Made by a program: the position numbers and the translations under genes. From assembly GCF_020055675.1 (NCBI RefSeq), contig NZ_JAIPUS010000011.1, positions 774 to 64,773 of the forward strand: 64,000 nt of DNA, read 5' to 3'. Position 1 is the first letter of the stretch. Each line of letters begins with the position of its first letter. Below, in pieces: positions 20,363 to 37,730 of the stretch. The notes beneath the pieces were generated by a model. It did no database searches. It was not told where the DNA came from and worked only from the letters and a program-made list of their open reading frames with translations. The stretch comes from Marivita sp. GTDB taxonomy: Bacteria; Pseudomonadota; Alphaproteobacteria; Rhodobacterales; Rhodobacteraceae.

Positions 20363-21649
20363 ATGACTGACCCCTCGAGCATCCGACCCCGCGTGCTCGC
20401 CATAGCCGAGGCCGCGAACCCAGAATGGGTGAGCGTGCCGCTTGTTGGCTGGTCCTTGGCGCAGGCGCTGCGCGAGGTCGCGGATGTGCACCTCGTTACG
20501 CAGATCCGGAATCGCGACGCGATCCTGCGGGCCGGGCTGGTCGAGGGTCGCGATTTCACAGCCATAGATTCCGAAGCAGTCGCCCGCCCTCTTTGGACCT
20601 TGGCCGAGAAATTGCGGATGGGCGAAGGAAAGGGCTGGACCACGCTTCAGGCATTCAATGCCCTGATCTACCCATGGTTCGAGCATCTGATCTGGAAGGA
20701 ATTCGGAAACGCGATCAAGGCCGGAGAGTTCGATCTGGTCCACCGGATCACGCCGCTCAGCCCGACCATCACATCTCCGATCGCGAAGAAGGTCGTCAAG
20801 GCCGGTGTGCCCTTCGTGCTGGGCCCCCTGAATGGAGGCGTGCCATGGCCAAGCCAATTCGACGCAGAGCGGCGTGCCGAGAAGGAATGGCTGAGCTATC
20901 TCCGAAGTGCGTACAAACATCTTCCGGGGCGGGCCAGCACGCTCAAACATGCCGCCACCATCATCGTCGGATCGCGCCACACCCAGAGCGAGGTTCCCGC
21001 CAAGCACCAGGGCAAAACCGTTTATATGCCAGAAAACGGCATTGATCCGGCGCGATTCAACCTGGCGTCAGAGCCTGACGGCGGAGTCCTTCGGGCGACC
21101 TTCGTCGGGCGACTGGTGCCCTACAAAGGCGCGGACATGCTGATCGAAGCGGCCGCGGATTTGATCGGATCGGGACGCATGACGCTTGATATCATCGGCG
21201 ACGGCCCGATGCTGGACCAGTTGACCGAACAAGCAAACTCACTGGGATGCGAAAAAGGGTTAACCTTTCACAAATGGATCCCGCATGAACAGGTCCAGTC
21301 AATTCTGAGCCGGTCGCATGTCCTGAGTTTCCCGTCGATCCGCGAATTCGGTGGCGGCGTGGTGCTCGAAGCCATGGCGTTGGGTGTGGTCCCGGTGGTC
21401 GTCGACTACGCTGGACCCGGGGAGCTTGTGACCCGGGAGACCGGCTTCAAGGTTCCCTGCGGCAGCCGCGACGAGATCATCGAGGGCTTCCGCTCCACCC
21501 TGTCGGACGTCGCGGAAAATCCAGCGCGTCTGGGTCCGGTGGCGGAAAACGCGAAACGCCTTGTGCAGTCGCAGTTCCTGTGGTCGCGCAAAGCCGAACA
21601 AGTCCGGCGCGTCTATGACCGGGCCTTGGCGAAGGACAGGCCGGATTAG
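20363..21649 (+). CDS. Glycosyltransferase family 4
   Basis: FVGRLVPYKG, IIGDGP, FPSIREFGGGVVLEAMALG (EX7E). Confidence 0.88.
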   Translation: MTDPSSIRPRVLAIAEAANPEWVSVPLVGWSLAQALREVADVHLVTQIRNRDAILRAGLVEGRDFTAIDSEAVARPLWTLAEKLRMGEGKGWTTLQAFNALIYPWFEHLIWKEFGNAIKAGEFDLVHRITPLSPTITSPIAKKVVKAGVPFVLGPLNGGVPWPSQFDAERRAEKEWLSYLRSAYKHLPGRASTLKHAATIIVGSRHTQSEVPAKHQGKTVYMPENGIDPARFNLASEPDGGVLRATFVGRLVPYKGADMLIEAAADLIGSGRMTLDIIGDGPMLDQLTEQANSLGCEKGLTFHKWIPHEQVQSILSRSHVLSFPSIREFGGGVVLEAMALGVVPVVVDYAGPGELVTRETGFKVPCGSRDEIIEGFRSTLSDVAENPARLGPVAENAKRLVQSQFLWSRKAEQVRRVYDRALAKDRPD

Positions 21650-21880
21650 GGCTTGCACCCTAACCCGACCTTTTTGTGGCGCGCAGGCGTCACCCGGCAT
21701 AAAACCCCGTTTGACATATTGTTTCTGCATTGATCGTTGCCAGGGCTGCACCCCGGCTGTTATGCGTCATCCATGGCGTGGGGGCGCTTAAGATAGAATT
21801 GTGTCGCTTTGCCTGCCCGATCGCAATTAAAAGTTTGGAACCTGTTCCGGATCAGAGACACGGACTCTGCACGCTCTGAA

Positions 21881-23833
21881 ATGCGGCAGTTCCTGTTCGC
21901 GATGGCGTGCCTCGCATTCCTGTTGTCGGCCCTCGGGTTTGGGAGCATCAGCGCGAACATCTTTGCTGCCGACATCGTACTCGTATTCTGCGGCGCATGG
22001 TGCGCCAATCAACTGATCCGTGGGCCGCAGATATTCAAAGCCCAGGCGATCTGTGTCCTGCAAGCCTATTTCATCGGCGTCTTTTGCATTTCGACCCTGC
22101 TCTACGTTGCGGGGTGGTTCTTGTTCCTGCCCGTCGAGTATCAGAACCTCGGTCACGCGCTCTTGCTGGCGGCCACGTTTTCAACCAACCTCGGATTGGT
22201 GTTTTTCCCGGTCGACAGCGGATTGCGCTTTGACGGGTTGTTCCATCACCTCTGGCTGCCTGCCTTGATCGCGCAATGCTGCGCCATTCTGTCGTTTATC
22301 TTCTGGCGCCTTTACCGCAACCAGATCCGGCTTCTGGTCGTTCTGGGGGTGATCGCCTGCCTGTCGCTGGTGTTGTCGCTGATTGAAACGCAGATGGTGA
22401 AGATGCTGCCAATCGGCGGCCTGTGGGCCTTCCTGTTCGGGGCGGTACCGTTCATTGCCACGCACCGGTTCCAGGTCCTGAAATACGCGTCGATGATCGG
22501 GGCTATCAACCTCATTGCCGGGATCATGGCGATCACCGCGACGGGCGATACGATCTTTGCGCGCGCCCTTGTCGCGCTCGGTCTGTCTTTCCTCTATGTC
22601 GGCAGTCGCCCTCGAGAGATGGACACCGACGCCACGATGCAACGCCGCCGCTGGTTCGGGATGATGTTGCACACGTTTCTCTGGGCGGTGCCGCTGGCAC
22701 AGTTGAATGCCGGGCTCCACATCCTGACGCCGGGCCAGGCCGATGTGCTGCTGCTGATATTCCCTTGCCTCGTCTTTGCGATCTTTTCGTGGACCATCTG
22801 GCAACATGTCGAGCAAAAGGCAGGGCGGAACCGTTTCTTCATCAGCGCGTCTGTATCGATTGTTCTCGTCATCAACGGGCTGATCGGCGCAGCGACGCAG
22901 GGAGCCGCGTTCCGGTTTCCCGAGGTGTCACAAGCCTACCTGACGGCGCTGGATGCACCGGAACCGGCGTTCACCTGCCCGCTTGAAACCGAGGGGCCGC
23001 TTGACGGGCTGGCAGTGTGCCACCTTGGCCCCAAGGGCGCGCCAGAGGCTCTGATATGGGGCGATCACCAACTGGACGCCTTGCGCGCCGGCTATTCCGA
23101 GGCAGCCCGCCGCACTGATATCCCGACGCTCCTGATCGGGCGAACGGATTGTATACCGCTCGACCGCTTGCAAACGCGGTTCCCGGCGAGCGCCGAACAG
23201 TCGGGACGGCAATGCGACCGGCAATCCGCACAGATCCTCCAGGCGCTGCCACACCTGCCCGGCATAAGGCAGGTCACTCTCGTGGGCGATTGGCTCCATT
23301 ACACGAATACCCGCTCCACCGAACTGTCGCCGCGCGTGCCGATCCGGATTGGGCCCAGTGATGGAACGCCGATCAATCTGGACCATCAAACCGCCTATAT
23401 CGCCACCGCGGCCGAACACACCACCCGAATGCTGACAGAGCAGGGCATTCGTGTCTCAGTGCTGCGCCAGGTCCCGTCACAGCCCCGGTTCGACGCGGAG
23501 CTGGCCGCCCGCGCTGACGTTCCCGGGGCGCAGTTCTACGTCAACCTGCCTCGAATTTCCCTTGGCACTGACAAACAGGCAGCCGCGGCGCGCCACGCCG
23601 AAATTGACGGTCTGTTCAATGATCTGGCGGTGAAAGGGCTTCTCAGCTATGTGAATTCATGGCCCGCATTCTGCAGCGATCTGCGCTGTGACGTGCGCGG
23701 CGGGTTGTCCAGCGACTATCTCACCTCAACGCGTCTGACTCCCAGCGGTGCACTGTCGCTCAGCGATATCCTTGCCGAAGACCTGAAGCGGGTGAAAACG
23801 CACACACCGATCCGGCGCGGGATGGGAAGCTGA
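21881..23833 (+). CDS. Acyltransferase-3/SGNH fusion-like protein with degenerate catalytic motifs
   Basis: About 10 TM N-terminal domain with remote AT3 similarity; periplasmic domain with LIWGD, Cys pairs and VTLVGDW; Ser and DxxH not found; start estimated. Confidence 0.62.
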   Translation: MRQFLFAMACLAFLLSALGFGSISANIFAADIVLVFCGAWCANQLIRGPQIFKAQAICVLQAYFIGVFCISTLLYVAGWFLFLPVEYQNLGHALLLAATFSTNLGLVFFPVDSGLRFDGLFHHLWLPALIAQCCAILSFIFWRLYRNQIRLLVVLGVIACLSLVLSLIETQMVKMLPIGGLWAFLFGAVPFIATHRFQVLKYASMIGAINLIAGIMAITATGDTIFARALVALGLSFLYVGSRPREMDTDATMQRRRWFGMMLHTFLWAVPLAQLNAGLHILTPGQADVLLLIFPCLVFAIFSWTIWQHVEQKAGRNRFFISASVSIVLVINGLIGAATQGAAFRFPEVSQAYLTALDAPEPAFTCPLETEGPLDGLAVCHLGPKGAPEALIWGDHQLDALRAGYSEAARRTDIPTLLIGRTDCIPLDRLQTRFPASAEQSGRQCDRQSAQILQALPHLPGIRQVTLVGDWLHYTNTRSTELSPRVPIRIGPSDGTPINLDHQTAYIATAAEHTTRMLTEQGIRVSVLRQVPSQPRFDAELAARADVPGAQFYVNLPRISLGTDKQAAAARHAEIDGLFNDLAVKGLLSYVNSWPAFCSDLRCDVRGGLSSDYLTSTRLTPSGALSLSDILAEDLKRVKTHTPIRRGMGS

Positions 23834-24835
23834 TCAAGCGGCCTGTGTGGCCATCAACTCCTTCCAGCGGTGGCAGGACACGGCATGTCCCGCGCCGTCG
23901 ATTTCCAATTGCGGCTCGACCTGTTTGCAATGGTCGATCGCATGCGGACAGCGCGTGTGGAATTTGCAGCCCGAGGGCTGGTTCGTGGGTGACGGGATTT
24001 CGCCTGTCAGCTTTTGCACCGCACCCCGATCATCGGGATCAAGCGACGGGATCGCCGAAAACAAGGCCCTCGTGTAGGGATGACGCGCTGCTTCGAAAAG
24101 CTTGCGCGTGGGCGCGGTTTCGACCAGCCGGCCCAGATACATGACCGCGACATGATCACAGGTATGGGCAACCACCGACAGATCATGACTGATGAACATG
24201 AATGTAACGCCCATGTCGGACTGGATCTGCTTCAAAAGATTCAGAACATCCGCCTGGATCGACACATCGAGCGCGGCGACGCTTTCATCGGCAACGATGA
24301 AGTTCGGAGCCGAGACAAGCGCGCGCGCGATCGAGATCCGCTGACGCTGGCCGCCAGAAAATGCATGCGGGAAACGACGCAGATGCTCTAGGTTGAGCCG
24401 GCATTTCGCCGCGATCTCGCGCACGCGCTTGTCGGTTTCCTGACGCGTTTTGGTCAGGCCCATCACTTCCAGCGGTTCGGCGATAATGTCGCGCACCGTC
24501 ATGCGCGGGCTCAAGGCCGCGTATGGATCCTGAAAGATCAGCTGCGCCCGTTTGCGATAATCCTTGAGCTGGTTCTTGGTGATGTTTTCGAGGTCGTATT
24601 CCACCTCTCCATCGCTGTAATGCGCGCCGCCCCCTGTGATCGGAACTGCCTTGAGAAGCGCGCGCCCCAGCGTTGTCTTGCCCGACCCGCTTTCCCCGAC
24701 AAGTCCAAAGACAGATCCCTTTTCGATGTCCAGCGACACGTCATCGACTGCCTTGAGGATCTGCTTGCTGAACAGGCCGGAGCCTATGGGAAACCCGACG
24801 GACAGGCTCTTCGCTCGGATCAGTATGTCGCTCAC
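23834..24835 (-). CDS. Oligopeptide-type ABC ATP-binding protein (OppF-like)
   Basis: GESGSGKT, FSGGQRQRI, DESVAALD, C-terminal CKFHTRC. Confidence 0.9.
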   Translation of the reverse strand: MSDILIRAKSLSVGFPIGSGLFSKQILKAVDDVSLDIEKGSVFGLVGESGSGKTTLGRALLKAVPITGGGAHYSDGEVEYDLENITKNQLKDYRKRAQLIFQDPYAALSPRMTVRDIIAEPLEVMGLTKTRQETDKRVREIAAKCRLNLEHLRRFPHAFSGGQRQRISIARALVSAPNFIVADESVAALDVSIQADVLNLLKQIQSDMGVTFMFISHDLSVVAHTCDHVAVMYLGRLVETAPTRKLFEAARHPYTRALFSAIPSLDPDDRGAVQKLTGEIPSPTNQPSGCKFHTRCPHAIDHCKQVEPQLEIDGAGHAVSCHRWKELMATQAA

Positions 24836-25827
24836 GCCATCTCCTCCGTGTAGATATGACATGCAACACGATGCGACCCGTCAAGATCGCGGTCTTTCGG
24901 GTCGACTTGCTTGCAGACATCGCCAACCACCTGGCGACAGCGGGTGTGAAACACACATCCTGATGGCCGTTCCAACGGAGACGGAATATCACCGGGCACA
25001 GGGGTCAGCGGCGCATCAATATCATCCAGTTTCGGCAGCGCGGCGATGAGTCCTTGTGTGTATGGATGCTTGGGCTGGCGGATCACATCACGCACCGGAC
25101 CGGTTTCGATCATGCGTCCCAGATACATCACATTCACCTTGTCGGCAGTCTGGGCCACGACACCCAGGTCGTGCGTGATAAAGACGATCCCCATCTGGAA
25201 TTCCGATACGAGATCTTTCATCAGGTCGATCACCTGCGCCTGGATCGTCACGTCCAGAGCGGTGGTCGGCTCATCCGCGATCAGAAGCTTGGGCTGTGTC
25301 GAAAGTGCCATGGCGATCATCGCGCGCTGCCGCATCCCGCCGGACAACTCGAACGCATATTGATTGAACCGCTTGCCAGCGTCCGAAATCCCGACACGGT
25401 CGAGCATCTCGATGGACCAGCGTTTTGCCTGTTCCTTGGTGTAGTCGCCATGCAGTTGCAGCTGTTCGACCATCTGGTTGCCGATGCTGATCGCGGGGGC
25501 GAAACTGGCCATCGGTTCCTGGAAAATCATCGAAACGGCGCCTCCGCGCACGATGTTCAACTCCTTCGGCGTCTTCAGCGACAAGACATCGACCGGGCCG
25601 GTCTCGGTGTGCAGAGTGATCTTGCTTTCAGGGCTGTAGACCGCGTTCCTGGCATTGAGATGCATCAGCGCCTTGGCGGTGACGGACTTGCCAGAGCCGC
25701 TTTCGCCGACCAGCCCCATGACCTCGCTCTTGTCGAGCGAGAAGCTCACATTGTCGACAGCCGTGATCAATCCCTCGTCGGTACGGAATTGCAGCGTCAG
25801 GTTTTCAACATCAAGCAAAGCCGTCAT
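24832..25827 (-). CDS. Oligopeptide-type ABC ATP-binding protein (OppD-like)
   Basis: GESGSGKS, LSGGMRQR, DEPTTALD, CVFHTRC. Confidence 0.9.
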   Translation of the reverse strand: MTALLDVENLTLQFRTDEGLITAVDNVSFSLDKSEVMGLVGESGSGKSVTAKALMHLNARNAVYSPESKITLHTETGPVDVLSLKTPKELNIVRGGAVSMIFQEPMASFAPAISIGNQMVEQLQLHGDYTKEQAKRWSIEMLDRVGISDAGKRFNQYAFELSGGMRQRAMIAMALSTQPKLLIADEPTTALDVTIQAQVIDLMKDLVSEFQMGIVFITHDLGVVAQTADKVNVMYLGRMIETGPVRDVIRQPKHPYTQGLIAALPKLDDIDAPLTPVPGDIPSPLERPSGCVFHTRCRQVVGDVCKQVDPKDRDLDGSHRVACHIYTEEMA

Positions 25828-27023
25828 TTGTTGTTATCCGAATAGGGGTCGGCTGCGTCGCGCAGACCGTCGCCGACAAACACGAACGCCATCACCAGTG
25901 CGATGAAAAAGATCACGGGGATGAAGTACCATTGATAGTTGAGCAGCACATCCGCGCTGGTCACGTTCTGGAGCATGACCCCGAGACTGTTGACCGGATC
26001 CTTGAGGCCCAGCCCGATAAAGGACAGCGCGGTTTCCGACAGCACCATGTACGGAAACGAGATCACCAGATCCACGATAATGTAGCTGGTAAAACTGGGC
26101 AGCAAATGCCGCCGGATCACATGGCCCGAGGACGCGCCACACAACTGCGCCGCCAGCACGTATTCCTGATTGCGCTCGGTCAGAAGATGCGTCCGCACCC
26201 GCCGCGCCAAGGTGGGCCAGCCGATCAGCCCGAGGATCAGGGATATGTAGAAGAACCGTTCCTCTGCCGAAAGCTCTGGCGGCATGAAGGCAGCCACAGC
26301 CATGAACAGCGGGATCGCGGGCACCGTTCGGACGGCATCTGTGATCATCTGCAACACGGAATCGATCCAGCCGCCATAGTATCCCGACACACCCCCGATC
26401 ACGAGCGCCAGGACAAAGGCGATAAAGACGCCGATGGTGCCCACCTGAAGCGAGGTCCAGATCGCGTGGAAGGTGCGCGAGAAGATGTCCTTGCCGCTCG
26501 CATCCGTGCCGAAGACATGCACAAAACCCTCTTGGGTGCCAAACAGATGCGTGTCCATCGGGATGAAGCCGAACAGCTTGTACTCCCAGCCCTCGACGAA
26601 GAAATAGACGTAGTTCCGCTCGTCCTCGTTCACCGTCGTCACCCAGCGGAAATTCGTTTCCAGGGACCGTTCCCGCTCCACGGCGTGCACGAAGGGGCGC
26701 AGGGAACAGCCAGTGTCATCACAGAACATCGGAACCTGCGGCGCGCCGTTGGTGTAATCGTCATTCTTGCCCGCTATGGTCGGATTGTACGGCGACAGGA
26801 ACGGCGCAAAGAGGCCTGTCAGGATCAAGAAGGCCAGCACGCAGGCGGCGACCATCGCCGACCGTTGTTTCTTGAACCGTGCCCAGATCAGCTGGCCCTG
26901 CGAGGCGGTGAAATACGCCTCTTTCGACCTGCGCTGCACCGCGTCTTCTGTTTCGACCACCTGCACATGGGGGCCGGTGGTCTCTGCGAGGTTCGGCTGC
27001 AGGGGATCCGGTGTCGTCGTCAT
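25824..27023 (-). CDS. ABC permease (OppC-like)
   Basis: FGTDASGKDIFSR, EYVLAAQLCGAS..HVIRRHLLP, ETALSFIGLG. Confidence 0.9.
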   Translation of the reverse strand: MTTTPDPLQPNLAETTGPHVQVVETEDAVQRRSKEAYFTASQGQLIWARFKKQRSAMVAACVLAFLILTGLFAPFLSPYNPTIAGKNDDYTNGAPQVPMFCDDTGCSLRPFVHAVERERSLETNFRWVTTVNEDERNYVYFFVEGWEYKLFGFIPMDTHLFGTQEGFVHVFGTDASGKDIFSRTFHAIWTSLQVGTIGVFIAFVLALVIGGVSGYYGGWIDSVLQMITDAVRTVPAIPLFMAVAAFMPPELSAEERFFYISLILGLIGWPTLARRVRTHLLTERNQEYVLAAQLCGASSGHVIRRHLLPSFTSYIIVDLVISFPYMVLSETALSFIGLGLKDPVNSLGVMLQNVTSADVLLNYQWYFIPVIFFIALVMAFVFVGDGLRDAADPYSDNNK

Positions 27024-27027
27024 GGCG

Positions 27028-28032
27028 TCACCTCACAATGCTTTTGCGGACGCGCGGGTCCAGAACGGCCAGCATCACATCCGTCAGAAAGTTCAGCGAC
27101 ACGATGGACGCCGTCAGAAGGAAGATGATCGCGCCGGCAAGCTGTTGGTCATTCGACCGTGCCAGCGCCTCGATCAACAGCGCCCCCGCCTCGGTCAGCG
27201 TCAGGATGAGGGCCACGATGGGCAATTCGTTGAAGATGCGATTGAGATCGAACCCGAGGCTGTTGATGATCGGCCCGAGCGCATGACGCGCCGGGTAATT
27301 CCACAAAAGCCTGCGCCCATGCACACCGCGGGCCGACGCAGCCGTGACATAAAGCTTGCCAATCTCGTCGGACATGAGGGCGCGCACCGTCTGAAGCGCA
27401 AAGGCCGTGGCCGACCAACCAAGAATGAAGATGGGAAGCCAAGCATTGCTGAGCAGGTCTTTCATCCGCCCCCAACTCCAGTCCGCATCGCGATATTCGG
27501 CGGAAAAGAGGCCGGTCAGCGTGTCCCCGAAATACACGGTCGAGAACAGCATGATCATCAGCGCCAGCAGGAAATTCGGCAGCGCCAGGCCAAGATAGCT
27601 GAACAGGCGCAACGAATTGTTCAGAACCGCGTTTTGCGAGGCCGCCGCAATGATCCCGACGGGCAGGGCGATGGCATAGGCAAGCGCCAGAGACGCCAGA
27701 CACAGGCCAAGCGAGATCCAGAACTTGTCACCCATCAATTGCGCGATATTCACCCGCAGGATGCAGCTTTCGCCGAATTCGCCCTGAAAGGCGTTGACGA
27801 TCCACTTGCTCCACCGTTCAAGAAACGGGCGGTCAAGGCCCAGTCGCACGCGTTCGGCTTCGATATCGGCCACCGAAATGCCGGAGCCTTGTGTGTTCTT
27901 GAAGGCCAGATAGCGTTCGGCACAATCGCCGGGGACAAACTCCATCAGCGAAAACACGACAAGCGAGACGATCACCAATGTGAGCATCGCGAAAACAGCG
28001 CGTGTCGCAACAAAACGAGCAAAGTTCAGCAT
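27028..28032 (-). CDS. ABC permease (OppB-like)
   Basis: LGLDRPF, ALPNFLLALM, EAA-like loop YVTAASARG. Confidence 0.88.
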   Translation of the reverse strand: MLNFARFVATRAVFAMLTLVIVSLVVFSLMEFVPGDCAERYLAFKNTQGSGISVADIEAERVRLGLDRPFLERWSKWIVNAFQGEFGESCILRVNIAQLMGDKFWISLGLCLASLALAYAIALPVGIIAAASQNAVLNNSLRLFSYLGLALPNFLLALMIMLFSTVYFGDTLTGLFSAEYRDADWSWGRMKDLLSNAWLPIFILGWSATAFALQTVRALMSDEIGKLYVTAASARGVHGRRLLWNYPARHALGPIINSLGFDLNRIFNELPIVALILTLTEAGALLIEALARSNDQQLAGAIIFLLTASIVSLNFLTDVMLAVLDPRVRKSIVR

Positions 28033-28151: not shown

Positions 28152-30191
28152 TTATTCGTCCAGCCACCATTGCGTGGCACGGTACGGATAGGTCCGGTAG
28201 TATTCGTAGGAATGCGTCTTGAAGTCGGCAAAGTTCTTCAGATCGTTGTTCTGATAAATCGGTGCCGGAGCATTCACAGTGCCGATGAACATCATGTTCT
28301 CGACCATCGCCTTGACCAGATCATTGCCAAGCTGCTCGAACTCCGCGGTGCCTTGGGCGGCGGACTGAAGCGCGTTGATGTCGTCGATCATGTCCTTGGC
28401 CCATTGCGGAGGCTCGACACCCTCGGCACCATCGGAATCGATCCACTCGGCCCAGAGCATCGCGTTGCGCACACCGAAGTAGTTTTCATACGGCGGCACC
28501 CACAATTCGTTGTTGCCCAGAACAATCGCCAGCGGCTGTGATTTGCGCCACATGGCCACGTCAAGCTGGTTCGAGGACTGCGCCGACCGGTACTCGTCCG
28601 GCGTCACTTCCTTGACCACGGACTGGATCCCCACATCGGCCCAGTTCTGTGCCACGAGTTCAACGGTCTGACCGGCCACGCCCTGGGTCGAGAAGTTGAG
28701 GTTCAGCACAAGCTTGTCGCCGTTCGGCAATTCGCGGAAGCCGTCACCGTCGGTGTCTTCCATGCCCAGCGCATCAAGCGCAGCATTGGCCGCATCTGGA
28801 TCATACTCGGCCTTGTAGGTCAGCCAGTCCTGATCCACGAATTCCGGCAACGGCGAGAACCCCACATATTGCTGCGGTGTGCCCTGACCGAAGAAGCCAA
28901 GCTCGTTCAGATCTTCGCGGTTGATCGCAACCGACATCGCCTCGCGGAAGGACAGATCGCTGAACACTGCGCGCTTGGCCGGGTCCTCATGCGTGACGTT
29001 GAAACCGAACACGCTCTGCGTGATCTCGGAGCGCAGATGAATGGTGTAGTCGCTGCTTTCCTGGTTCTCCAGGAGGATCGGCGCAGAGGCGAGTTGCAGG
29101 GATTGAGACTTGTAATCCACCTCACCGTTCACGAGCTTGAGGATACGCACCTCGTTGTCGTTGATATAAAGCTCATCCTGCGTCGAGATATAGGGCAACT
29201 GCTGGCCCGTCGGATCGACCTGGAAGAAGTAGGGATTCGCCACCAACTGACGGCCCTCGGTCGTGTCGTTGATGTAGATGTGCGATTCCAGCGTCGGATA
29301 GGTCGCCTTGGGCAGATCGTCGACAATATCGGCACGCGACAACATCGGCGTCGGCGTGTCGGTCCAGTCGGAGTTGCCATAATACGCAAGAATGGCGTCA
29401 TAACCGTCTTCGAACCCGAGGCTCTGCGCATAGCTGTCCGCATCCGGGTTCACATCCGGGTGGAACTGGCCAAGGAAATGCTTCGGCTGGAATGGCTGCG
29501 AATAATGCGTCGCAAAATGCGCGATCAAACCGGGCTTCGGTGCCGGCAGGTTGAAGATCACCGTGGTGTCGTCCGGTGCTTCGATGGTCATCGGCTCGCC
29601 CGCGACGGTGATGTAATCCTTGGGCGTTTCGGAGATGTTTTCGTCCAGCATCAGGTTGTCGTGGTAGAACACGATATCCGCACTGGTGAACGGCTCACCG
29701 TCGGACCACTTGTGGCCTTCGCGCAGCTTGATCGTCAGTTGGGTGAAATCGTCGTTCCAGTCCCATGACTTCGCCACGTTCGGCACGATGGTCTGAAGAT
29801 CGTCTGAGTAGCGCATCAGGCTGACATGGCGCACCGACAGGAAATCGGACGTGCCCGCCTCGGTCGCGTTGGACAAGACGTTCAGTTCACCGCCATATTC
29901 GCCAACACTGTTATAGGGCACCATGACAAGAGGTTCGGCCGGGATCCGCTCGGAGAGCGGTGGAAGCTCCGGGTTGCCCTTGATCTGCGCGTTCAGCGCT
30001 TCAATCTCGGGGTTGGTGGAAAACTCCATCACGCAGCCAGCGGCGTCCTGAAAGGCACTGAGCTCGTATTGCTGGGGATATTCGCCGGGCGCGATGCCCT
30101 GCATGTCATCCAAGGTGACCGCCGGGCAATTGGCATAGGCCGCTGCCGGAAGGGCAAGCAGGGCAACGCCTGAAAGTAATAGTCGTTTCAT
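28152..30191 (-). CDS. ABC substrate-binding protein, family 5, about 680 aa
   Basis: Signal peptide MKRLLLSGVALLALPAAAYA; LPPLSERIP..P, YGG, PNVAKSW.WNDD, LREGHKWSDGEPFTSADI; GGAG RBS. Confidence 0.88.
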   Translation of the reverse strand: MKRLLLSGVALLALPAAAYANCPAVTLDDMQGIAPGEYPQQYELSAFQDAAGCVMEFSTNPEIEALNAQIKGNPELPPLSERIPAEPLVMVPYNSVGEYGGELNVLSNATEAGTSDFLSVRHVSLMRYSDDLQTIVPNVAKSWDWNDDFTQLTIKLREGHKWSDGEPFTSADIVFYHDNLMLDENISETPKDYITVAGEPMTIEAPDDTTVIFNLPAPKPGLIAHFATHYSQPFQPKHFLGQFHPDVNPDADSYAQSLGFEDGYDAILAYYGNSDWTDTPTPMLSRADIVDDLPKATYPTLESHIYINDTTEGRQLVANPYFFQVDPTGQQLPYISTQDELYINDNEVRILKLVNGEVDYKSQSLQLASAPILLENQESSDYTIHLRSEITQSVFGFNVTHEDPAKRAVFSDLSFREAMSVAINREDLNELGFFGQGTPQQYVGFSPLPEFVDQDWLTYKAEYDPDAANAALDALGMEDTDGDGFRELPNGDKLVLNLNFSTQGVAGQTVELVAQNWADVGIQSVVKEVTPDEYRSAQSSNQLDVAMWRKSQPLAIVLGNNELWVPPYENYFGVRNAMLWAEWIDSDGAEGVEPPQWAKDMIDDINALQSAAQGTAEFEQLGNDLVKAMVENMMFIGTVNAPAPIYQNNDLKNFADFKTHSYEYYRTYPYRATQWWLDE

Positions 30192-30399
30192 GGTCTCTCC
30201 TGTTGGTTCCAAGTGTTCATCAGGGGCTGATCCCCCTGTTGTGTCCGGATCTGCCGAAACAGCCGGTCATTCCGGATCTTGATCCATCGCTTGAGTCATT
30301 TGTAAGATTCGTATTGGCGATAGAGGGCAGTCGGTCGAAACATCTCCTGTTTTGCATCCGCGCAGGTGCGGACAGCCGCGTTTTGTATCTCTGGCAACC

Positions 30400-30417
30400 A
30401 TGACAGATCCATGACAG
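30400..30417 (-). promoter_or_regulatory. Pho box (PhoB site) upstream of the ABC operon
   Basis: Minus strand CTGTCAT-GGAT-CTGTCAT: two consensus heptamers at 11-bp period, oriented toward the SBP gene. Confidence 0.75.
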
Positions 30418-30426: not shown

Positions 30427-31926
30427 TCACGACGCCACCTTAACGCCGTCATCGGTAATCTTCGTGCGGGAAAACGTGCCATCGGCATGGATCATGCGAT
30501 GGCGGAGCAAATCCTGCATCAAATCGAGCATTGTCTGCGAATGTGATGAATTTTTCGCCAGGTTTTGCGTCTCGGTCCCACCCGACACATCCATGAGAAC
30601 AGGGGGCAAGCCCCCGGCAAACTGCACATAGCGCAGAGTGTCTTTGCGCAGCACGGCCAGCTTGGCCTCGTCGATGGACAGGCCATGCGCCGTTTGCCAA
30701 GCCGTTGGCGTGATCGGGTCAGCGAAATCAAGCTCGGACACCGAAACCTGTTTCCAGGCCTCCGGAACGGTCCGGTTCAGAAACGGTTTCAGGCTGCGCC
30801 CATCCATGGAATGGAGCACCGACAGGCCAAGGCAGTCGAGGATTGTCGGCGTCACATCTATCGACTCTGTCGGCGCCATCACGACATGACCGCGCGCTTG
30901 GGCCGCTGGATCGCGGATGATCAGCGGGACATGGAAAGCGGCGTCGTGGAACGTTGTCTTGCCCCAAATACCGTAATCACCCAACAAGTCGCCATGATCG
31001 GCAGTCAGGACGATCAGCGTGTCGTCATACTGGCCCGTCTCCCTGAGCCAGCCGATCAGCCGGCCGACATGATGATCGACCTCGGTCGCCAGCCCGAAAT
31101 AGAGCTTGCGGATCATCTTGGTGGTTTCGTCTGTCGCGGGCAGATCGGGAAACCCGATGACAGTCGACGCGGCAGAGCTTTGCATCCGCGCGGTGGTCAG
31201 GAACGGGTGCCAATCCGGGTCCGCAGCCTGTCGCGGCGGGGGCATCCGCGCAGCATCATACATCGCGTTGTAAGGCGCCGGGGCGACAAACGGGGGATGC
31301 GGGCGAATATAGGTCAGCAGCGCGAACCAGCCGGAATCGCGCTGCGACAGGTCGGCAAGCGTCCGGTCGGTCAGGAAGGCGGTATCACTGTCGCCGGCTG
31401 CGTAAAGGGCCGGAGCGTCAGGCGCATCTCCCGCGGGTCGGTACAGGGCCGGATAGGGCGGGACATCATACCCCTTCTGGCCCAGGTCGGTCTCCCACGC
31501 GCGGGAATCGCCTTCCAGACGCATTCGCACCACTTCGGTGAAACCGGGCATCACCTCTTCATAGGAAAACAACCGCGGATCGTCCGGGGGCAGGAACCGG
31601 GGATCCTGCGATGTGTCGGTATACCCAAAGAGCAGCGGATCATGCCCCTGCGCGCGCATCACGCTGGCAAGGTTCGGCGTATCCCGCTTGAGCGGCGTCC
31701 CGTTGCGGGTCGCTCCGTGGTTCGACGCGTATTGCGCCGTGAGCAGCGACACCCGAGACGGCCCGCAGGGCGAGGTGACGGAATAATGCGACTGGAACGC
31801 GACCGAGTCATCGGCCAGCTTACGGATATTGGGCAGGTCAAGATGCTCTGACAGAGCGCCGAAAACGCAATCAGCGCGCAGCTGATCGATTACGATAAAA
31901 AGCGTATTCGTCTTGGTTTTTGTCAC
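30427..31926 (-). CDS. Alkaline phosphatase superfamily, phosphonate monoester hydrolase/phosphodiesterase (PMH/PehA-like)
   Basis: LFIVIDQLRAD, SPCGPSR..LLT (CxPxR), YIRPHPPFVAPAPY, TADHGDLLGD...GK; no signal peptide. Confidence 0.72.
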   Translation of the reverse strand: MTKTKTNTLFIVIDQLRADCVFGALSEHLDLPNIRKLADDSVAFQSHYSVTSPCGPSRVSLLTAQYASNHGATRNGTPLKRDTPNLASVMRAQGHDPLLFGYTDTSQDPRFLPPDDPRLFSYEEVMPGFTEVVRMRLEGDSRAWETDLGQKGYDVPPYPALYRPAGDAPDAPALYAAGDSDTAFLTDRTLADLSQRDSGWFALLTYIRPHPPFVAPAPYNAMYDAARMPPPRQAADPDWHPFLTTARMQSSAASTVIGFPDLPATDETTKMIRKLYFGLATEVDHHVGRLIGWLRETGQYDDTLIVLTADHGDLLGDYGIWGKTTFHDAAFHVPLIIRDPAAQARGHVVMAPTESIDVTPTILDCLGLSVLHSMDGRSLKPFLNRTVPEAWKQVSVSELDFADPITPTAWQTAHGLSIDEAKLAVLRKDTLRYVQFAGGLPPVLMDVSGGTETQNLAKNSSHSQTMLDLMQDLLRHRMIHADGTFSRTKITDDGVKVAS

Positions 31927-32009
31927 GGCACATCCCAGAACTGGACGGATGATGCCCTGAACAAATCATATGTAAAGAGAGGCGTTCGCTATACCTCCAT
32001 AGGTCAAAC

Positions 32010-32888
32010 TTATACTTTGGCCTGCGCAACCACCCGTTTCACAGACTTGAGAAACCCCCGGATCAACGGCACGTCGCACCGCGCGGACAGGGTGACAAGC
32101 GATTCCGACATGCCGATGTCCACATCTTCGAACGGTAACGTCAGCAGCCGCCTGTCGTGCCCGACCTCCGCCTCGCTGATAAACCCGATCCCGGCACCAG
32201 ACGCCACGACTTCGCGCATTGCCTCACGCCCCTCAACCTCGATCGCGGGCATGAGGGACAACCCGAGGCGCATCGCTTCTTCTTCAACAATCGCGCGGGT
32301 CCGCGACCCCGCCTCGCGGAAAACAAGTGGATACCTGGCCAGATCCCTGAACCGCAGCGCCCGCGTTCCCTTGCGAAGATACCCCTTGCCCGCAAGGCCA
32401 AGGATCGGTGTACGGCCCAGATCGACCGCATCAAGATCGGGTGCCGTGACAGAGTTGCCGATCACGCCGATCTCGGCTTCGTAGTTGCGCAGGCGGCGCA
32501 ACAAGTCTTCTGTATTGCCGGTCCGGATCGTGACGAACACATCCGGGTTCGAGGCACGAAACCGGCTGACCGCGGCCGTGATATGCATCGCGGAATCGGC
32601 CATGATCCGAAGATGCCCGGACAGCGCCGCGCGGTTCTCATCGAACAGCGCGGCGATCCGGTCCTCGACTTCGAACATCTCGCTTGTCAGGCGAAAAAGC
32701 GCTTCGCCGGCCTTGGTCATGCGCACCTGCCGCGCCTCGCGCGAAAACAGCAGCACGTCGTGTCGCTGTTCCAGTTGCCGGACCTGATCGGACACCGAGG
32801 GTTGCGATATGTTCAGCGCCCGCGCTGCGCTGGAAAAACCGCCATGCAAAGCAACGTGATGAAACGCCCGCAAATGACTGTATCGCAT
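32010..32888 (-). CDS. LysR regulator of aminoethylphosphonate catabolism (phn-associated LysR)
   Basis: HTH FSSAARALNISQPSVSDQVRQLE; divergent from phnW. Confidence 0.85.
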   Translation of the reverse strand: MRYSHLRAFHHVALHGGFSSAARALNISQPSVSDQVRQLEQRHDVLLFSREARQVRMTKAGEALFRLTSEMFEVEDRIAALFDENRAALSGHLRIMADSAMHITAAVSRFRASNPDVFVTIRTGNTEDLLRRLRNYEAEIGVIGNSVTAPDLDAVDLGRTPILGLAGKGYLRKGTRALRFRDLARYPLVFREAGSRTRAIVEEEAMRLGLSLMPAIEVEGREAMREVVASGAGIGFISEAEVGHDRRLLTLPFEDVDIGMSESLVTLSARCDVPLIRGFLKSVKRVVAQAKV

Positions 32889-32916
32889 GGATCCCTCCGA
32901 TTTGATACGAAGACAT

Positions 32917-32931
32917 ATAACCAAGGGTTAT
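32917..32931. promoter_or_regulatory. Putative LysR recognition site
   Basis: Palindrome ATAACC-AAG-GGTTAT containing T-N11-A in the lysR/phnW divergent gap. Confidence 0.6.
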
Positions 32932-33010
32932 TGAAGAATAGCAAACAAAGATTTCAAATATGAATGCCCGCATTGCATATCGGACACAGGATCAAATTCG
33001 GAACCCCGCC

Positions 33011-34192
33011 ATGTCGTCCAGCCCCCTGCCCATGCCAGCACTCGGCGAACCCTATCTTCTCACCCCCGGCCCGCTGACAACCGCCTGTTCCGTCAAACAG
33101 GCGATGCTGAAGGACTGGGGCAGTTGGGACGACGATTTCCGCGCCCTCACCCGCGACATGCGCCGTCGCCTGCTTGCGATGATCGGAGACACCGCGCCGG
33201 AGTATGACTGCGTGCCGATCCAGGGCTCGGGCAGCTATTGCGTCGAAGCGATGCTGGGTAGCTTTGTGCCACGCGACGGTAAGGTGCTTGTCCTGGCAAA
33301 CGGCGCCTACGGCCTGCGCGCGGCGCAGACACTGGATTATCTGGGACGCGCATATCACGTGCTCGACAAGGGCGATTACCTGCCTCCGCGCGGCACGGAG
33401 GTGGCACAGATCCTCGCCGAGGACCCAATGATCACCCATGTGTTGGCGATCCATTGCGAAACCTCCAGCGGTATACTGAACCCGTTGGAAGAAATTGCCG
33501 AAGCAACGCAAGCCGCCGGGCGCAAGCTGCTGATCGATTCCATGTCGGCCTTTGGCGCGCTGCCGCTTGATCCCGGCGCTCTCAACTGCGCCGCCTTCGT
33601 ATCCTCGGCCAATAAATGCATCGAAGGTGTGCCCGGGTTCGGCTTCGTCATCGCCCGCAAGGAGGAAATTGACGCCTCCAGGGGCAACTCGCATTCCCTG
33701 TCGCTGGACGTGCACGCGCAATGGGCAACGATGGAGAAAACCGGACAGTGGCGCTACACCCCGCCGACCCATGTGGTCGCAGCGTTCCTCAAGGCGCTCG
33801 ATCTGCACGAGGCCGAAGGCGGCGTGCCCGCCCGTGGTGCGCGCTACACAAACAATCGGGACGTGGTCGTGCAGGGTTTGCGGGATCTCGGCTTTGAAAC
33901 ACTGCTCGAGGATCGCTGGCTCAGCCCGATCATCGTCACCTTTTTCTGCCCCGCCGATACAAACTTCACCTTCAAGGGATTCTATGACTCCATGAAAGCG
34001 CGGGGCTTCATCATCTACCCCGGCAAGCTGACCGTGGTGGAGTCTTTCCGCATCGGGGTGATCGGGCAAATGGATGAACACGTCATGCGCCGCGTGGTCG
34101 AAGCGGCCCGCGAGGCTCTGACTGACATGAACGTAAGCTGCGCGGCCCCACCCGCAGCCGCCCTCGAAGAACGCAAGAAACTCGCCGCCTGA
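33011..34192 (+). CDS. phnW: 2-aminoethylphosphonate:pyruvate transaminase
   Basis: YLLTPGPLTT, DWGSWD, HCETSSGILNP, SSANKCIEGVPG, QWRYTPPTHVV, FIIYPGKLT; start uncertain. Confidence 0.93.
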   Translation: MSSSPLPMPALGEPYLLTPGPLTTACSVKQAMLKDWGSWDDDFRALTRDMRRRLLAMIGDTAPEYDCVPIQGSGSYCVEAMLGSFVPRDGKVLVLANGAYGLRAAQTLDYLGRAYHVLDKGDYLPPRGTEVAQILAEDPMITHVLAIHCETSSGILNPLEEIAEATQAAGRKLLIDSMSAFGALPLDPGALNCAAFVSSANKCIEGVPGFGFVIARKEEIDASRGNSHSLSLDVHAQWATMEKTGQWRYTPPTHVVAAFLKALDLHEAEGGVPARGARYTNNRDVVVQGLRDLGFETLLEDRWLSPIIVTFFCPADTNFTFKGFYDSMKARGFIIYPGKLTVVESFRIGVIGQMDEHVMRRVVEAAREALTDMNVSCAAPPAAALEERKKLAA

Positions 34193-34202
34193 AGGAAGAG
34201 AC

Positions 34203-35462
34203 ATGCCCCTCACGAACCCCGTGGTCGCCAATGACCGCACCTACCCCGTGCCCAGAACCTGCGCGATTGCGATCTGTCTGGATGGCTGCGAACCGGAATA
34301 CCTTGAGGTCGCGATTGCCGAAGGTCTGATGCCGACACTCAAGCGCATCCGCGAAACCGGGACAGACCGTCTGGCCCATTCGGTGATCCCCTCCTTTACC
34401 AACCCCAACAACATGAGCATCGCCACCGGCCGCCCGCCTGCGGTGCATGGCATCTGCGGCAACTTCCTCTATGAGCCGGAAACCGGCCAGGAAGTGATGA
34501 TGAACGACCTGCGCTTCCTGCGCGCCCCGACCGTTTTCTCGAAATTCTACGAGGCCGGTGCGCGTGTCGCTGTCATCACCGCCAAGGACAAGCTGCGCGC
34601 GCTTCTGGGCGCTGGGCTGAAGTTCGACGAAGACCGCGCGATTGCGTTTTCCTCGGAACGGTCGGGCGACACGACGAAAGCGGAACACGGGATCGACAAG
34701 GCGTCGGACTGGCTCGGCATGCCGGTGCCCGAGGTCTATTCCGCTGACCTGTCGGAATTCGTCTTCGCCGCGGGCGTAAAGTTGCTGAAGGAGTGGAAAC
34801 CGGACGTGATGTACCTGTCCACGACCGACTACATCCAGCACAAGTTCGCCCCGGACGAACAAGGCGCCAAGGACTTCTACGCGATGTTCGACCGCTACCT
34901 GACCGAGCTTGACGCGATGGGTGCCGCCATCGTCGTGACCGCCGACCACGGCATGAAGCCCAAGCATGACGCCAATGGTGACCCGGCGGTGATCTACGTT
35001 CAGGATCTGCTCGACGAGTGGCTGGGCGAAGCCGCCGCCCGCGTGATCCTGCCGATCACCGACCCTTATGTCGTGCATCACGGTGCACTTGGGTCCTTTG
35101 CCACGGCCTACCTGCCCTCCGGCGCAGATCAGGCCGACATCATCGCCCGCCTGCGCGCTTTGCCGGAAATGCTCGAAGTTGTGGACAAGGCCACGGCTGT
35201 CCAGAAATACGACCTGCCCGCCGACCGGATCGGTGATATCGTGATGATCTCGACCGAGAACATGACCATCGGCACCAGCGCCCACCGTCACGACCTTGCC
35301 GCACTCAAGGAACCGCTCCGCAGCCATGGCGGCCTGACCGAACAAGAGGTCCCGTTCATCGTGAACCGCAAGATCGATTTGCCCGGCGCGCCCGTCTTGC
35401 GCAACTTCGATGCGTTCTTCTACGCCACCGCCGCCGCAGCCCTCGAAGAGGTGGAAGCATGA
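34203..35462 (+). CDS. phnA: Phosphonoacetate hydrolase
   Basis: [53 protein letters not shown]. Confidence 0.93.
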
Positions 35463-36898
35463 CCGACATCCGCCACGACCAGATGCGCATCGGCGGCGAA
35501 AAGGTCGATACCGACGCGCGCATCGAGGTGCGGTATCCCTATACCGACGAGGTGATCGGGACGGTGCCCGCTGGCAACGCAGACCACGCCCGCCGCGCAT
35601 TCGAGATTGCCGCGAACTACACGCCAAAACTCACCCGGTATGAACGCAGCCAGATCCTGCAACGGGCCGGGCAACTGATCGGCGAACGCCGCGATGACCT
35701 CGCCAAATGGCTGGTGCTGGAACTGGGCATCTGCCACCAGCACGCGATCTACGAGACCAAGCGCGCGCAGGATGTCTACCAATTCGCCGCCGCCGAAGCG
35801 CTCAAGGACGATAGCGAGGTGTTTTCCTGCGACCTCACCCACAACGGCAAGGCGCGCAAGATCTTCACCATGCGCGAACCGGTGCGCGCCATCAGCGCGA
35901 TCACCCCGTTCAACCACCCGCTCAACATGGTCAGCCACAAGATCGCGCCATCGATTGCGACCAATAATTGCATGGTCTGCAAGCCGACGGAATTGACACC
36001 ACTCACGGCGCTGACTTTGGCGGATATCCTCTACGAGGCGGGCCTGCCGCCCGAGATGTTCCAGGTGGTCACGGGGATGCCCGCCGACATCGGCGATGAG
36101 ATGATCACCAACGAGAATATCGATATCATCACCTTCACCGGCGGTGTTCCCGTCGGCAAACTCATCGCGGGCAAAGCAGGCTACAAACGCACCGCTCTGG
36201 AACTGGGCGGGAACGATCCCCTGATCGTCTGCAACGACCTGAGCGATGCCGACCTCGACAAAGCCGCGACCATCGCCGTGGCAGGCGCCACCGGCAATTC
36301 CGGCCAGCGGTGTACCGCGATCAAACGCATCCTCGTGCAGGAAAGCGTGGCGGACCGCTTCGTCCCGCTGGTGGTCGAGAAGGCCAAGAAGATCAAATTC
36401 GGCGATCCGCAGGACCCGGAAACCGAACTTGGCTGCGTGATCCATGCGCAAGCCGCCGAGCTTTTCGAAAAGCGCGTCACCATGGCCGCAGATCAAGGCG
36501 CCAAGGTTCTCTACAATCCCGGTCGTCAAGGCGCGCTGCTGCCCCCCATCGTTGTCGATCACGTGCCCCATGAAAGCGAACTGGTGATGGAGGAAACCTT
36601 CGGCCCCATCATCCCCATCGTGCGCGTGCCCGACGATGACACCGAGGTGATGCGCATCTCGAACAGCACCGACTTCGGTCTGTCTTCGGGCGTGTGCACC
36701 AACGATCTGAACCGCGCGATCGCCTATATCAACGGCTTGAATGTCGGCACCTGCAACATCTGGGAACAGCCCGGCTACCGGATCGAGATGTCCCCGTTCG
36801 GCGGCATCAAGGACAGCGGCAACGGCGTGAAGGAGGGCGTCATCGAAGCGATGAAATTCTTCACCAACGTCAAAACCTACAGCCTGCCATGGCCATGA
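35459..36898 (+). CDS. phnY: Phosphonoacetaldehyde dehydrogenase
   Basis: [47 protein letters not shown]; follows phnA. Confidence 0.92.
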
Positions 36899-36902
36899 AG
36901 GA

Positions 36903-37730
36903 GTGACGCTGTCCATTCTCGGGATCGTCCTGACAGCGGCGTTCCTGCACGCGCTGTGGAACGCGCTCGTCAAGGCATCGGGTGACCGTGCGATCACCTT
37001 GGGGCTGGTGGCAGCGGGCCATTGCGTGCCTGCGATCCTGCTGCTGCCGATGGCGCCGGTCCCCGCGATGGCGGCGCTGCCCTATATCGTGGCCTCCACG
37101 GTGATACACTGGGGCTACTATTACTTCCTGAACATGGCTTACCGCTTTGGCGATCTGTCCCTGATCTATCCCATAGCCCGTGGCGCGGCCCCGGTGATGG
37201 TCGCACTGGGCGCGATGGTCTGGGCCGACGAGGGTCTGCCAGTCCTCGCGTGGATCGGGATAGTCACGGTATCCGCCGGGATCATGATCCTCGCAGCCAT
37301 TCGCCATGCCGACACGCGGGGCATCGCGGCGGCCCTGTGCACCTCGGCTATCATCGCTGCGTATTCGATCATTGACGGCATCGGCATCCGCGTCTCCGGC
37401 GCGCCATTGGGATATGTGATCTGGCTCTTCGCCGCAGAGATCTTTGTGGTGTTCTTTGTCGGCGCCACGCGGGTCCAACGCCTTCGGGCGCTGCCGGGCA
37501 AGGCAGTGACCCTGGGCCTTTTGGGCGGTGCGATCTCGGGCCTGGCTTACGCCCTTGCGCTTTACGCCAAAACCCTCGCACCCATCGGCATCGTCTCGGC
37601 CATTCGCGAAACCTCGGTGATCTTCGCCGCCTTGATCGGTGTCTACTGGATGGGCGAAGGCCCGGCCCGACGCCGGCTCATTGCCGCGTCTGTCGTTGCG
37701 CTGGGTGTGATCCTGCTGACGTTCTCATGA
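36903..37730 (+). CDS. EamA/DMT membrane protein (phosphonate-utilization associated type)
   Basis: AAFLHALWNALVK, DLSLIYPIARG, AIRETSVIFAALIG; 10 TM; last gene of phnWAY operon. Confidence 0.82.
   Translation: MTLSILGIVLTAAFLHALWNALVKASGDRAITLGLVAAGHCVPAILLLPMAPVPAMAALPYIVASTVIHWGYYYFLNMAYRFGDLSLIYPIARGAAPVMVALGAMVWADEGLPVLAWIGIVTVSAGIMILAAIRHADTRGIAAALCTSAIIAAYSIIDGIGIRVSGAPLGYVIWLFAAEIFVVFFVGATRVQRLRALPGKAVTLGLLGGAISGLAYALALYAKTLAPIGIVSAIRETSVIFAALIGVYWMGEGPARRRLIAASVVALGVILLTFS

Follow-up and report, generated by a model that had tools for sequence, protein, structure and literature searches.

A Pho box precedes a peptide-type ABC importer operon beside phosphonate monoester hydrolase and phn genes in Marivita sp.

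The Locus

The stretch of DNA considered here, referred to as the window, comprises 64,000 nucleotides of contig NZ_JAIPUS010000011.1 of Marivita sp. and contains a five-gene operon encoding an ATP-binding cassette (ABC) importer of the PepT/Opp type, composed of a family 5 (cluster C) substrate-binding protein (SBP), two permeases, and two ATPases. Upstream of the operon, and on the same strand, lies a gene encoding a hydrolase that resembles the phosphonate monoester hydrolases (PMHs), followed by a gene for a LysR regulator and by the divergently oriented genes phnW, phnA, and phnY, which encode a route for the catabolism of 2-aminoethylphosphonate (AEP). Situated between the stop codon of the PMH-like gene and the start of the SBP gene is a Pho box, the direct-repeat motif described for the regulator PhoB, in the orientation of the importer genes. 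Taken together, the arrangement suggests that this importer, which would commonly be annotated as a peptide transporter, probably carries an organophosphorus ester rather than peptides. The coordinates of the relevant features are collected in Table 1.

Table 1. Features of the importer operon, its upstream region, and the adjacent hydrolase and phn genes, with positions in the window.
Feature	Position	Strand	Basis
Pho box CTGTCATGGATCTGTCAT: two direct repeats CTGTCAT, spacer GGAT, 11-bp periodicity	30400-30417	minus	Exact match
Putative -10 hexamer GATACA	30384-30389	minus	10 nt 3' of the Pho box; read from sequence
5' leader	30192-30383	minus	Holds AGGAG, a 15-codon open reading frame, a GC hairpin, and the ribosome-binding site
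SBP ribosome-binding site GGAGAG	30200-30195	minus	Precedes ATG 30191
SBP, 679 amino acids, periplasmic, family 5 (cluster C), signal peptide, conserved Cys22/Cys53	28152-30191	minus	Pfam SBP_bac_5, E=5.5e-53
ABC permease, OppB/NikB-like	27028-28032	minus	BPD_transp_1 and BPD_transp_1_N; syntenic in 75 loci
ABC permease, OppC-like, OppC_N domain	25824-27023	minus	Pfam, NCBIfam, synteny
ABC ATPase, OppD-like, oligo_HPY	24832-25827	minus	Pfam, NCBIfam, synteny
ABC ATPase, OppF/DppF-like, oligo_HPY, last gene of the operon	23834-24862	minus	Pfam, NCBIfam, synteny
Terminator-like hairpin	23803-23819	minus	Directly after the stop of the OppF/DppF-like ATPase
PMH-like hydrolase, 499 amino acids, cytoplasmic, CGPSR formylglycine motif, no signal peptide	30427-31926	minus	Pfam Sulfatase, alkaline-phosphatase superfamily
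Sigma-70-like promoter of the PMH-like gene	31949-31976	minus	Consensus scan; PMH-like gene without Pho box
LysR regulator, aminoethylphosphonate-catabolism family	32010-32924	minus	phn_lysR 263.6 bits (below the cut-off of 341); HTH_1 and LysR_substrate
phnW-phnA-phnY	32960-36898	plus, divergent from LysR	NCBIfam, above cut-off: PhnW 547.8, PhnA 507.2, PhnY 762.4 bits

The Pho Box and the Promoter of the Importer Operon

As defined in E. coli, the PhoB box consists of two 7-bp direct repeats of CTGTCAT placed 4 bp apart, such that two 11-bp units are formed (PMC4415409). The element in the window matches 14 of the 14 core-repeat positions of this consensus, which is that of E. coli PhoB and may not be the host's. 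A gap of 9 nt (cccgttgga) separates the box from the stop codon of the PMH-like gene (TGA, 30429-30427), and the 3' end of the box lies 208 nt 5' of the SBP start codon, the ATG at 30191. As the flanking genes all lie on the minus strand, the box is located on the coding strand. A preliminary description of this DNA had reported CTGTCAT-GGAT-CTGTCAT on the coding strand, just past the PMH stop codon and about 210 bp 5' of the SBP ATG; the motif, its distances, and its orientation are all borne out by these measurements.

Searches of both strands of the window set the box apart from the background. When no more than one mismatch is allowed, the box is the sole match within the 64 kb, where shuffled sequences lead one to expect 0.01, and the number of exact matches expected per window, as estimated from base composition, is approximately 2e-4. 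When up to three mismatches are allowed, four sites are found against 4.03 expected, and the other three sites thus stand at the chance level. Similarly, when scored with a leave-one-out position weight matrix (PWM), the box reaches 25.2 bits, and the runner-up in the window, which falls inside a coding region or at its end, reaches 13.4 bits.

In the promoter of E. coli pstS, the Pho box replaces the -35 element and lies approximately 10 bp 5' of the -10 hexamer. The geometry at the Marivita locus, where the box is found in gene orientation roughly 10 bp before a weak -10 hexamer, is likewise that of a putative activator-dependent PhoB promoter with the box in place of the -35 element, and transcription would start near 30377. 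A consensus scan of the intergenic region upstream of the SBP gene revealed no sigma-70 -35/-10 pair, which is to be expected of an activator-dependent promoter. Most other box-bearing loci among the orthologs described below also carry a TA-rich hexamer 3' of the box, at a distance of 5-12 nt that in most cases is 8-10 nt. In addition, both the box and the -10 block TTGCCAGAGATACAAAAC, which makes up the ~20 nt directly following it, are kept in the window and in four orthologous loci (L001, L002, L003, and L019), while the remainder of the leader has diverged.

Several minor elements are found within the leader. The sequence AGGAG (30344-30348), located approximately 50 nt 3' of the Pho box, is shared with the same four loci and is followed directly, in the window and in L001, by a 15-codon open reading frame (ORF), MFRPTALYRQYESYK (30296-30343, minus strand). 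As a conserved leader peptide this ORF was rejected, for it is kept only in L001 and lost in L002, L003, and L019. A riboswitch or attenuator in the 208-nt leader was likewise rejected: no Rfam family matched the leader at E<=1, and its fold does not stand out significantly (z-score -1.18). Lastly, a GC-rich hairpin (CAGGGG-loop-CCCCTG, 30221-30238) without a U-tract lies approximately 20 nt 5' of the SBP ribosome-binding site. It is kept in loci of the Marivita group, a stem of other sequence occupies the same place in L016, and the hairpin might contribute to stabilization or processing of the mRNA.

Conservation of the Box across Orthologous Loci

Conservation of the box was assessed in 80 orthologous loci (L001-L080), in which SBP identity ranges from 62 to 96% and which together provide approximately 1 Mb of sequence. 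A scan of this sequence for CTGTCAY-N4-CTGTCAY, with no more than two mismatches, identified 35 near-consensus sites, 22 of which are located within 0-400 bp 5' of an SBP start, all 22 on the coding strand, where 0.45 would be expected. Consistent with this enrichment are the results obtained with the leave-one-out PWM at a threshold of at least 10 bits: sites are present on the coding strand of 35 of the 80 SBP upstream regions versus two of the 80 in the control, for which these regions were scored on their reverse strand (Wilcoxon p=2e-8). The box-positive loci belong to Marivita, Sagittula, Shimia, Alexandriicola, Kiloniellales, Notoacmeibacter, Hyphomicrobiales, and Rhodospirillaceae, and hence span several alphaproteobacterial orders, beyond close relatives of the host. 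Cultured strains with a box include Marivita sp. S6314 (L003), Shimia biformata JCM 18818 (L010), and Alexandriicola marinus LZ-14 (L021). In L047 and L062, three repeats are present in an 11-bp register.

Comparable sites 5' of the PMH, phnW, or LysR genes were found in none of the loci, and the box therefore appears to control the genes of the transporter rather than those for catabolism. The few other PWM matches in the fetched flanks adjoin small ORFs without a Pfam match.

Together these data make it very likely, as far as sequence comparison can indicate, that the motif is a working PhoB operator. Two observations favor a different view, namely that some other regulator, whether of the OmpR family or unrelated, reads the motif, or that the motif has no function and arose by chance or is a relic: the box is missing from more than half of the orthologous loci, and the consensus used for comparison is that of E. 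coli PhoB rather than one derived from the host's own PhoB or pst promoters. This alternative is nonetheless highly improbable when set against the complete match (14/14) to the E. coli PhoB core repeat (PMC4415409), the enrichment of position and strand across distant taxa, and the retention of the box amid diverged flanks. The loci without a convincing box do indicate that control by Pho, though frequent in the family, is not universal. The preliminary description had staked its reading in part on the presence of the motif upstream of orthologous SBP genes, and that expectation holds for approximately 35 of the 80 loci and fails in the rest, where the motif is absent or too weak.

The Importer and Its Substrate-binding Protein

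Assignment of the operon to the PepT/Opp type rests on a SBP_bac_5 domain, a pair of permeases with BPD_transp_1, one of which also has OppC_N, and two oligo_HPY ATPases, all of which score above the Pfam gathering thresholds. The start of the SBP gene is placed at ATG 30191 by the ribosome-binding site that precedes it and by the finding that the 679-amino acid orthologs all begin MKR. The mechanically called ORF begins at a TTG at 30212, 21 nt 5' of this ATG, such that gene callers could annotate a protein of 686 amino acids with a false N-terminus. The mature SBP is predicted to span residues 21-679 approximately.

In every source the SBP carries either a peptide/nickel label or that of a generic ABC binding protein. 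When compared with the NCBIfam equivalogs for peptide, nickel, and opine binding, the SBP reaches no cut-off, its scores relative to the respective cut-offs being 104/650 bits for Opp4A (the best), 77/393 for NikA, 29/947 for OppA, and 26/1005 for DppA. The nearest solved relatives are instead binders of carbohydrates, and include SPH1118 (pectin), 5ipw, AgpA (alpha-galactoside), and chitin- and mannoside-binding proteins. The closest of these is SPH1118 of Sphingomonas sp. A1 (7ver), with 228 bits and approximately 30% identity over approximately 580 residues. Like the SBP described here, SPH1118 is a large cluster C protein with an extra domain that was once annotated as an oligopeptide binder, and its positively charged cleft accommodates acidic pectin oligosaccharides (PMC9314435). 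In contrast, no connection of SPH1118 with phosphorus has been reported, and the residues with which it contacts its ligand (Arg57, Arg438, Arg466, and Arg496) are not conserved in the Marivita protein, which indicates that the ligand of the latter is not pectin and is not readable from homology.

The SBP family matched more than 594 species-level genomes, with identities of 62-97% over Rhodobacterales, Hyphomicrobiales, Kiloniellales, several Gammaproteobacteria, and metagenome-assembled genomes (MAGs) of SAR324 and Poribacteria. The sequencing runs found to hold the locus are DNA metagenomes only. The SBP's closest relatives put the host in Marivita or near it, within the Roseobacter group. 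Together with the permeases, the SBP is unusually conserved (62-96% amino acid identity in L001-L080) among Alphaproteobacteria, several Gammaproteobacteria (Granulosicoccus, Ca. Spongiihabitans, and Ectothiorhodospiraceae), and MAGs labeled as SAR324, Poribacteria, and Acidobacteria. Such high identity over so wide a range suggests strong constraint, horizontal spread, or the presence of some mis-binned contigs.

The Hydrolase and the Nature of the Cargo

The PMH-like protein scores 565 bits against 4upk (SpPMH), 320 bits against 2vqr (RlPMH), and 298 bits against 2w8s (BcPMH/PehA), as compared to at most 190 bits against aryl and choline sulfatases. It has the CxPxR nucleophile motif in common with all three characterized enzymes, and its CGPSR sequence aligns with the motif of 4upk, placing it within the PMH clade. 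Since its score of 394 bits against the NCBIfam PehA model falls short of the cut-off of 900, the protein is a PMH-clade paralog or ortholog of SpPMH and not a PehA equivalog. Hydrolysis of phosphonate monoesters or phosphodiesters is the activity predicted from these relationships.

These affinities bear upon the suggestion that the Pho box is functional while the cargo contains no phosphorus, the importer serving instead in a general starvation response by taking up a peptide, an oligosaccharide, or an organosulfate that is cut by a sulfatase-like PMH. The family 5, OppBCDF-like architecture of the importer and the carbohydrate-binding relatives of its SBP would accord with such a role, as would the hydrolysis of sulfate esters by PMH-clade enzymes (PMC5488252) and the presence in Pho regulons of some transporters unrelated to phosphorus, for example PotAD in Phaeobacter (PMC10132767). 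The suggestion is nevertheless unlikely to be correct, as the hydrolase is nearest to characterized PMHs and phosphodiesterases by the wide difference in scores given above, and as the system is repeatedly co-located with genes for catabolism of the C-P bond.

Linkage to PMH and phn Genes

Linkage was defined as the presence of a PMH-like gene of at least 40% identity within 6 kb of the transporter, and was evaluated in 79 loci. Such a gene is present in 40 of these, located directly upstream and on the same strand in 25, directly after the last ATPase gene and on the same strand in eight, and on the opposite strand in seven. The eight loci in which the PMH-like gene follows the last ATPase gene directly suggest that importer and hydrolase are there encoded in one operon. 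The genes phnW/phnA adjoin the transporter in 18 of the 79 loci. An all-versus-all clustering of the ORFs in the flanks recovered PMH, LysR, PhnW, PhnA, and PhnY together with antisense artifacts, and no other conserved neighbors.

In the window itself the AEP catabolic cluster is complete, extending from 32010 to 37730 directly 5' of the PMH-like gene, with the LysR gene on the minus strand and phnW, phnA, phnY, and an EamA permease gene on the plus strand. The encoded route leads from 2-aminoethylphosphonate via phosphonoacetaldehyde and phosphonoacetate to acetate and inorganic phosphate (Pi). The true start of the LysR gene is probably near 32888. An EamA gene also adjoins the SBP gene in L007, L068, and L070, and its product could be a permease for phosphonates or for a product of the pathway. 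No further phosphorus-related genes were found in the rest of the 64-kb window. The same cluster of phnW-phnY-phnA, pmh, and lysR has been described in Marivita sp. AC-MB-28 in a 2026 paper, in which the transporter and the Pho box are unmentioned (PMC13608971).

Proximity to these genes raises the question of whether the transporter imports free AEP, or a closely related small aminophosphonate, for PhnWAY, in which case the PMH would be an accessory and the box would add control by phosphorus starvation to a substrate-inducible pathway. Adjacency of phnW/phnA and a phn-type LysR gene, in the window and in the 18 loci mentioned above, is in keeping with this proposal, as is the finding that the 64-kb window contains no other recognizable AEP transporter, apart from the EamA permease encoded after phnY. 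Three observations render it improbable all the same. Firstly, linkage to PMH (40/79) is more common than linkage to phn genes, and the PMH gene is operonic in some loci. Secondly, the AEP transporters characterized to date are AepXVW, AepP, and AepSTU, which are encoded beside phnWAY or phnWX in marine Alphaproteobacteria and among which no peptide-type component is reported (PMC8316502); it is by this literature description, and by its more frequent linkage to PMH than to phnW, that the transporter described here is set apart from them. Thirdly, a 679-amino acid cluster C SBP with oligosaccharide-binding relatives would be an unlikely receptor for a ligand of 125 Da. The phosphorus-containing ligand proposed in the preliminary description thus gains in plausibility from the linkage of the transporter to PMH and phnW/phnA genes and from the carbohydrate-binding character of the nearest solved SBPs, with the ligand itself predicted from this context.

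The pairing of a PMH with a peptide-type importer is not confined to this family. On plasmid pRL9 of Rhizobium johnstonii 3841 (L082, 8995-16207), the gene for RlPMH (PehA), an enzyme that has been crystallized and characterized kinetically, is separated by 34 bp from genes further downstream that encode a 544-amino acid family 5 SBP, two oligo_HPY ATPases, two permeases, and a LacI regulator, such that RlPMH, like the PMH described here, neighbors a family 5 ABC importer. The 544-amino acid SBP is not orthologous to the 679-amino acid SBP (29% identity over 73 residues), and the pairing of PMH with PepT-type importers has therefore arisen independently on two or more occasions. The sites resembling a Pho box 5' of pehA on pRL9 are weak, scoring 11.8 and 15.0 bits, and the latter is wrongly oriented. 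A further arrangement is seen on a plasmid of Aliiroseovarius crassostreae (L083, 4058-10539), where a PMH homolog is divergent from a PotD/PotF-like ABC importer that is not of family 5, with no phnW within 9 kb.

Comparison with Known Systems

The acc system of Agrobacterium (AccABCDE plus AccF) resembles the system described here in that a family 5/cluster C importer is encoded in the same cluster as a cytoplasmic esterase, and its cargo, the agrocinopines, are phosphodiesters. In PMC4526662, AccA is described as a cluster C SBP, and dual control of the acc operon by substrate and by phosphate level is attributed to Kim et al. (2008). Several differences are evident. AccA comprises approximately 520 amino acids and is not among the 44 PDB relatives of the Marivita SBP at E<=1e-3; the esterase partnering the Marivita importer is one of the formylglycine PMHs, which belong to the alkaline-phosphatase superfamily, whereas that of acc is AccF; and the system here is chromosomal and widespread in marine bacteria while acc is carried on the Ti plasmid. 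Homology to AccA and AccF is lacking, and the resemblance is one of function only. Similarly, E. coli ugpBAECQ combines a Pho-box-driven ABC importer of glycerophosphodiesters with cytoplasmic hydrolysis by UgpQ. UgpB belongs to another SBP family and operates with a single ATPase, and no sequence relationship to the family 5 system described here exists.

A Pho-regulated ester importer working together with a cytoplasmic esterase is thus already known, and the system described here is not a categorically new class. The preliminary description went too far in raising the possibility of a new class of organophosphorus importer, because the acc operon, as portrayed in PMC4526662 (citing Kim et al., 2008), is a precedent for a family 5 importer of sugar phosphodiesters under phosphate control. 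Ugp-type proteins are also PhoB-dependent in Phaeobacter, as is a pair formed by a "sugar" ABC transporter and a predicted phosphodiesterase (PMC10132767). No publication was found in which this particular SBP family is connected with PMH, phosphonates, or the Pho regulon.

A Model for Import and Hydrolysis of Phosphonate Esters

The motif, promoter geometry, conservation, gene families, and gene linkage lead us to infer PhoB binding, induction at low Pi, a transcription start, and a type of ligand, and these can be joined in a model to which we assign a probability of roughly 0.6: the importer, activated by PhoB, would take up a phosphonate ester or phosphodiester, which the PMH would then cleave. 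Under Pi starvation, phosphorylated PhoB would bind both CTGTCAT repeats of the box and recruit RNA polymerase to the weak GATACA hexamer, with the transcript beginning at approximately 30377 and the PhoB operator standing in for the -35 element of the promoter of the five-gene importer operon. Given that no terminator is found between the PMH-like gene and the box, read-through from the LysR/PMH transcription unit could add a second, substrate-dependent input, and the combination of read-through with PhoB would amount to a dual substrate and phosphate control resembling that of the acc operon. The cargo would be an anionic phosphonate monoester or phosphodiester, probably linked to a carbohydrate or polyol, candidates being 2-aminoethylphosphonate or an alkylphosphonate linked to a sugar, glycerol, or another alcohol. 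Lacking a signal peptide, the PMH would cleave this cargo in the cytoplasm, and the freed phosphonate would be converted to phosphate by PhnW-PhnY-PhnA or by a C-P lyase encoded elsewhere in the genome.

Several findings weigh against this model. With regard to regulation, a convincing box is missing or too weak in the majority of orthologous loci; phoB/phoR and pst are absent from the 64-kb window, and the consensus applied is that of E. coli; the leader, at approximately 186 nt, is unusually long for a Pho promoter, and the -10 hexamer is weak. The published Pho regulons of two Roseobacters, R. pomeroyi (PMC3390766) and Phaeobacter MED193 (PMC10132767), moreover, list no such transporter. 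With regard to the partnership of importer and hydrolase, the gene for the crystallized SpPMH in R. pomeroyi DSS-3 (L081) has no transporter neighbor and adjoins R-body (RebB) genes. With regard to the cargo, the anion-binding arginines of SPH1118 are lost in the SBP, being replaced, according to a HMMER alignment, by other residues (R57->L118, R438->Q503, R466->P531, and R496->N561). PMH enzymes are, finally, promiscuous and hydrolyze sulfate esters too, which leaves room for a sulfate-ester substrate; van Loo et al., in 2010, reportedly observed cleavage of sulfate esters by PMH-clade enzymes as well.

Implications

A broader proposal may be built upon the model, namely that a Pho box, an importer with a long, carbohydrate-type family 5 SBP, and a cytoplasmic PMH together constitute a missing marine route for the uptake and de-esterification of natural phosphonate esters. 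This proposal is speculative and on balance doubtful. Its candidate substrates include phosphonate-decorated oligosaccharides of high-molecular-weight dissolved organic matter (DOM), fragments of phosphonoglycans, and deacylated head groups of phosphonolipids. If true, it would reveal what PMH enzymes, whose native substrate has long been unknown, act upon in nature. PhnWAY or PhnWX would be supplied with AEP and C-P lyase with alkylphosphonates, which would place the route upstream of aerobic methane release. Were the model itself to hold, PMH enzymes, which since 1996 have been studied only on synthetic substrates, would gain both a physiological context and, in the screening of SBP ligands, a route to their substrate. 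PMH-type enzymes have been proposed to free ester-bound phosphonates from marine high-molecular-weight DOM (PMC5649143), a proposal with which the model accords, and this step, which precedes C-P cleavage, would become directly testable.

Should the importer indeed carry organophosphorus compounds, surveys of marine genomes and meta-omes over-count the uptake of peptides and under-count the scavenging of organic phosphorus. The preliminary description had further proposed the system as a biomarker of phosphorus starvation, and use of the SBP transcript or protein as a marker of phosphorus stress is possible, only in those lineages that carry the box. Being abundant, misannotated throughout, and linked to PMH, the SBP family is a worthwhile and inexpensive lead.

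Other Genes in the Window

Beyond the genes discussed above, the window contains further islands. Beside the phn cluster lies a catabolic island (37743-43923) encoding RpiR, a protein of the N-formylglutamate amidohydrolase family, a TRAP transporter (DctQ, DctM, and DctP), and a glutamine-synthetase-like protein. A second island (46508-52704) is devoted to the catabolism of urate and allantoin and encodes a PuuD-type urate oxidase, a LysR regulator, HIU hydrolase, a fused polysaccharide-deacetylase/OHCU decarboxylase, ureidoglycolate lyase, and a xanthine/uracil permease. Facing the transporter operon from beyond its last gene, in convergent orientation, are genes (18953-23833) for a Wzy-like protein of the O-antigen ligase family, a GT4 glycosyltransferase, and an AT3-SGNH acyltransferase, synteny of the last being limited to the Marivita loci (L001-L003).

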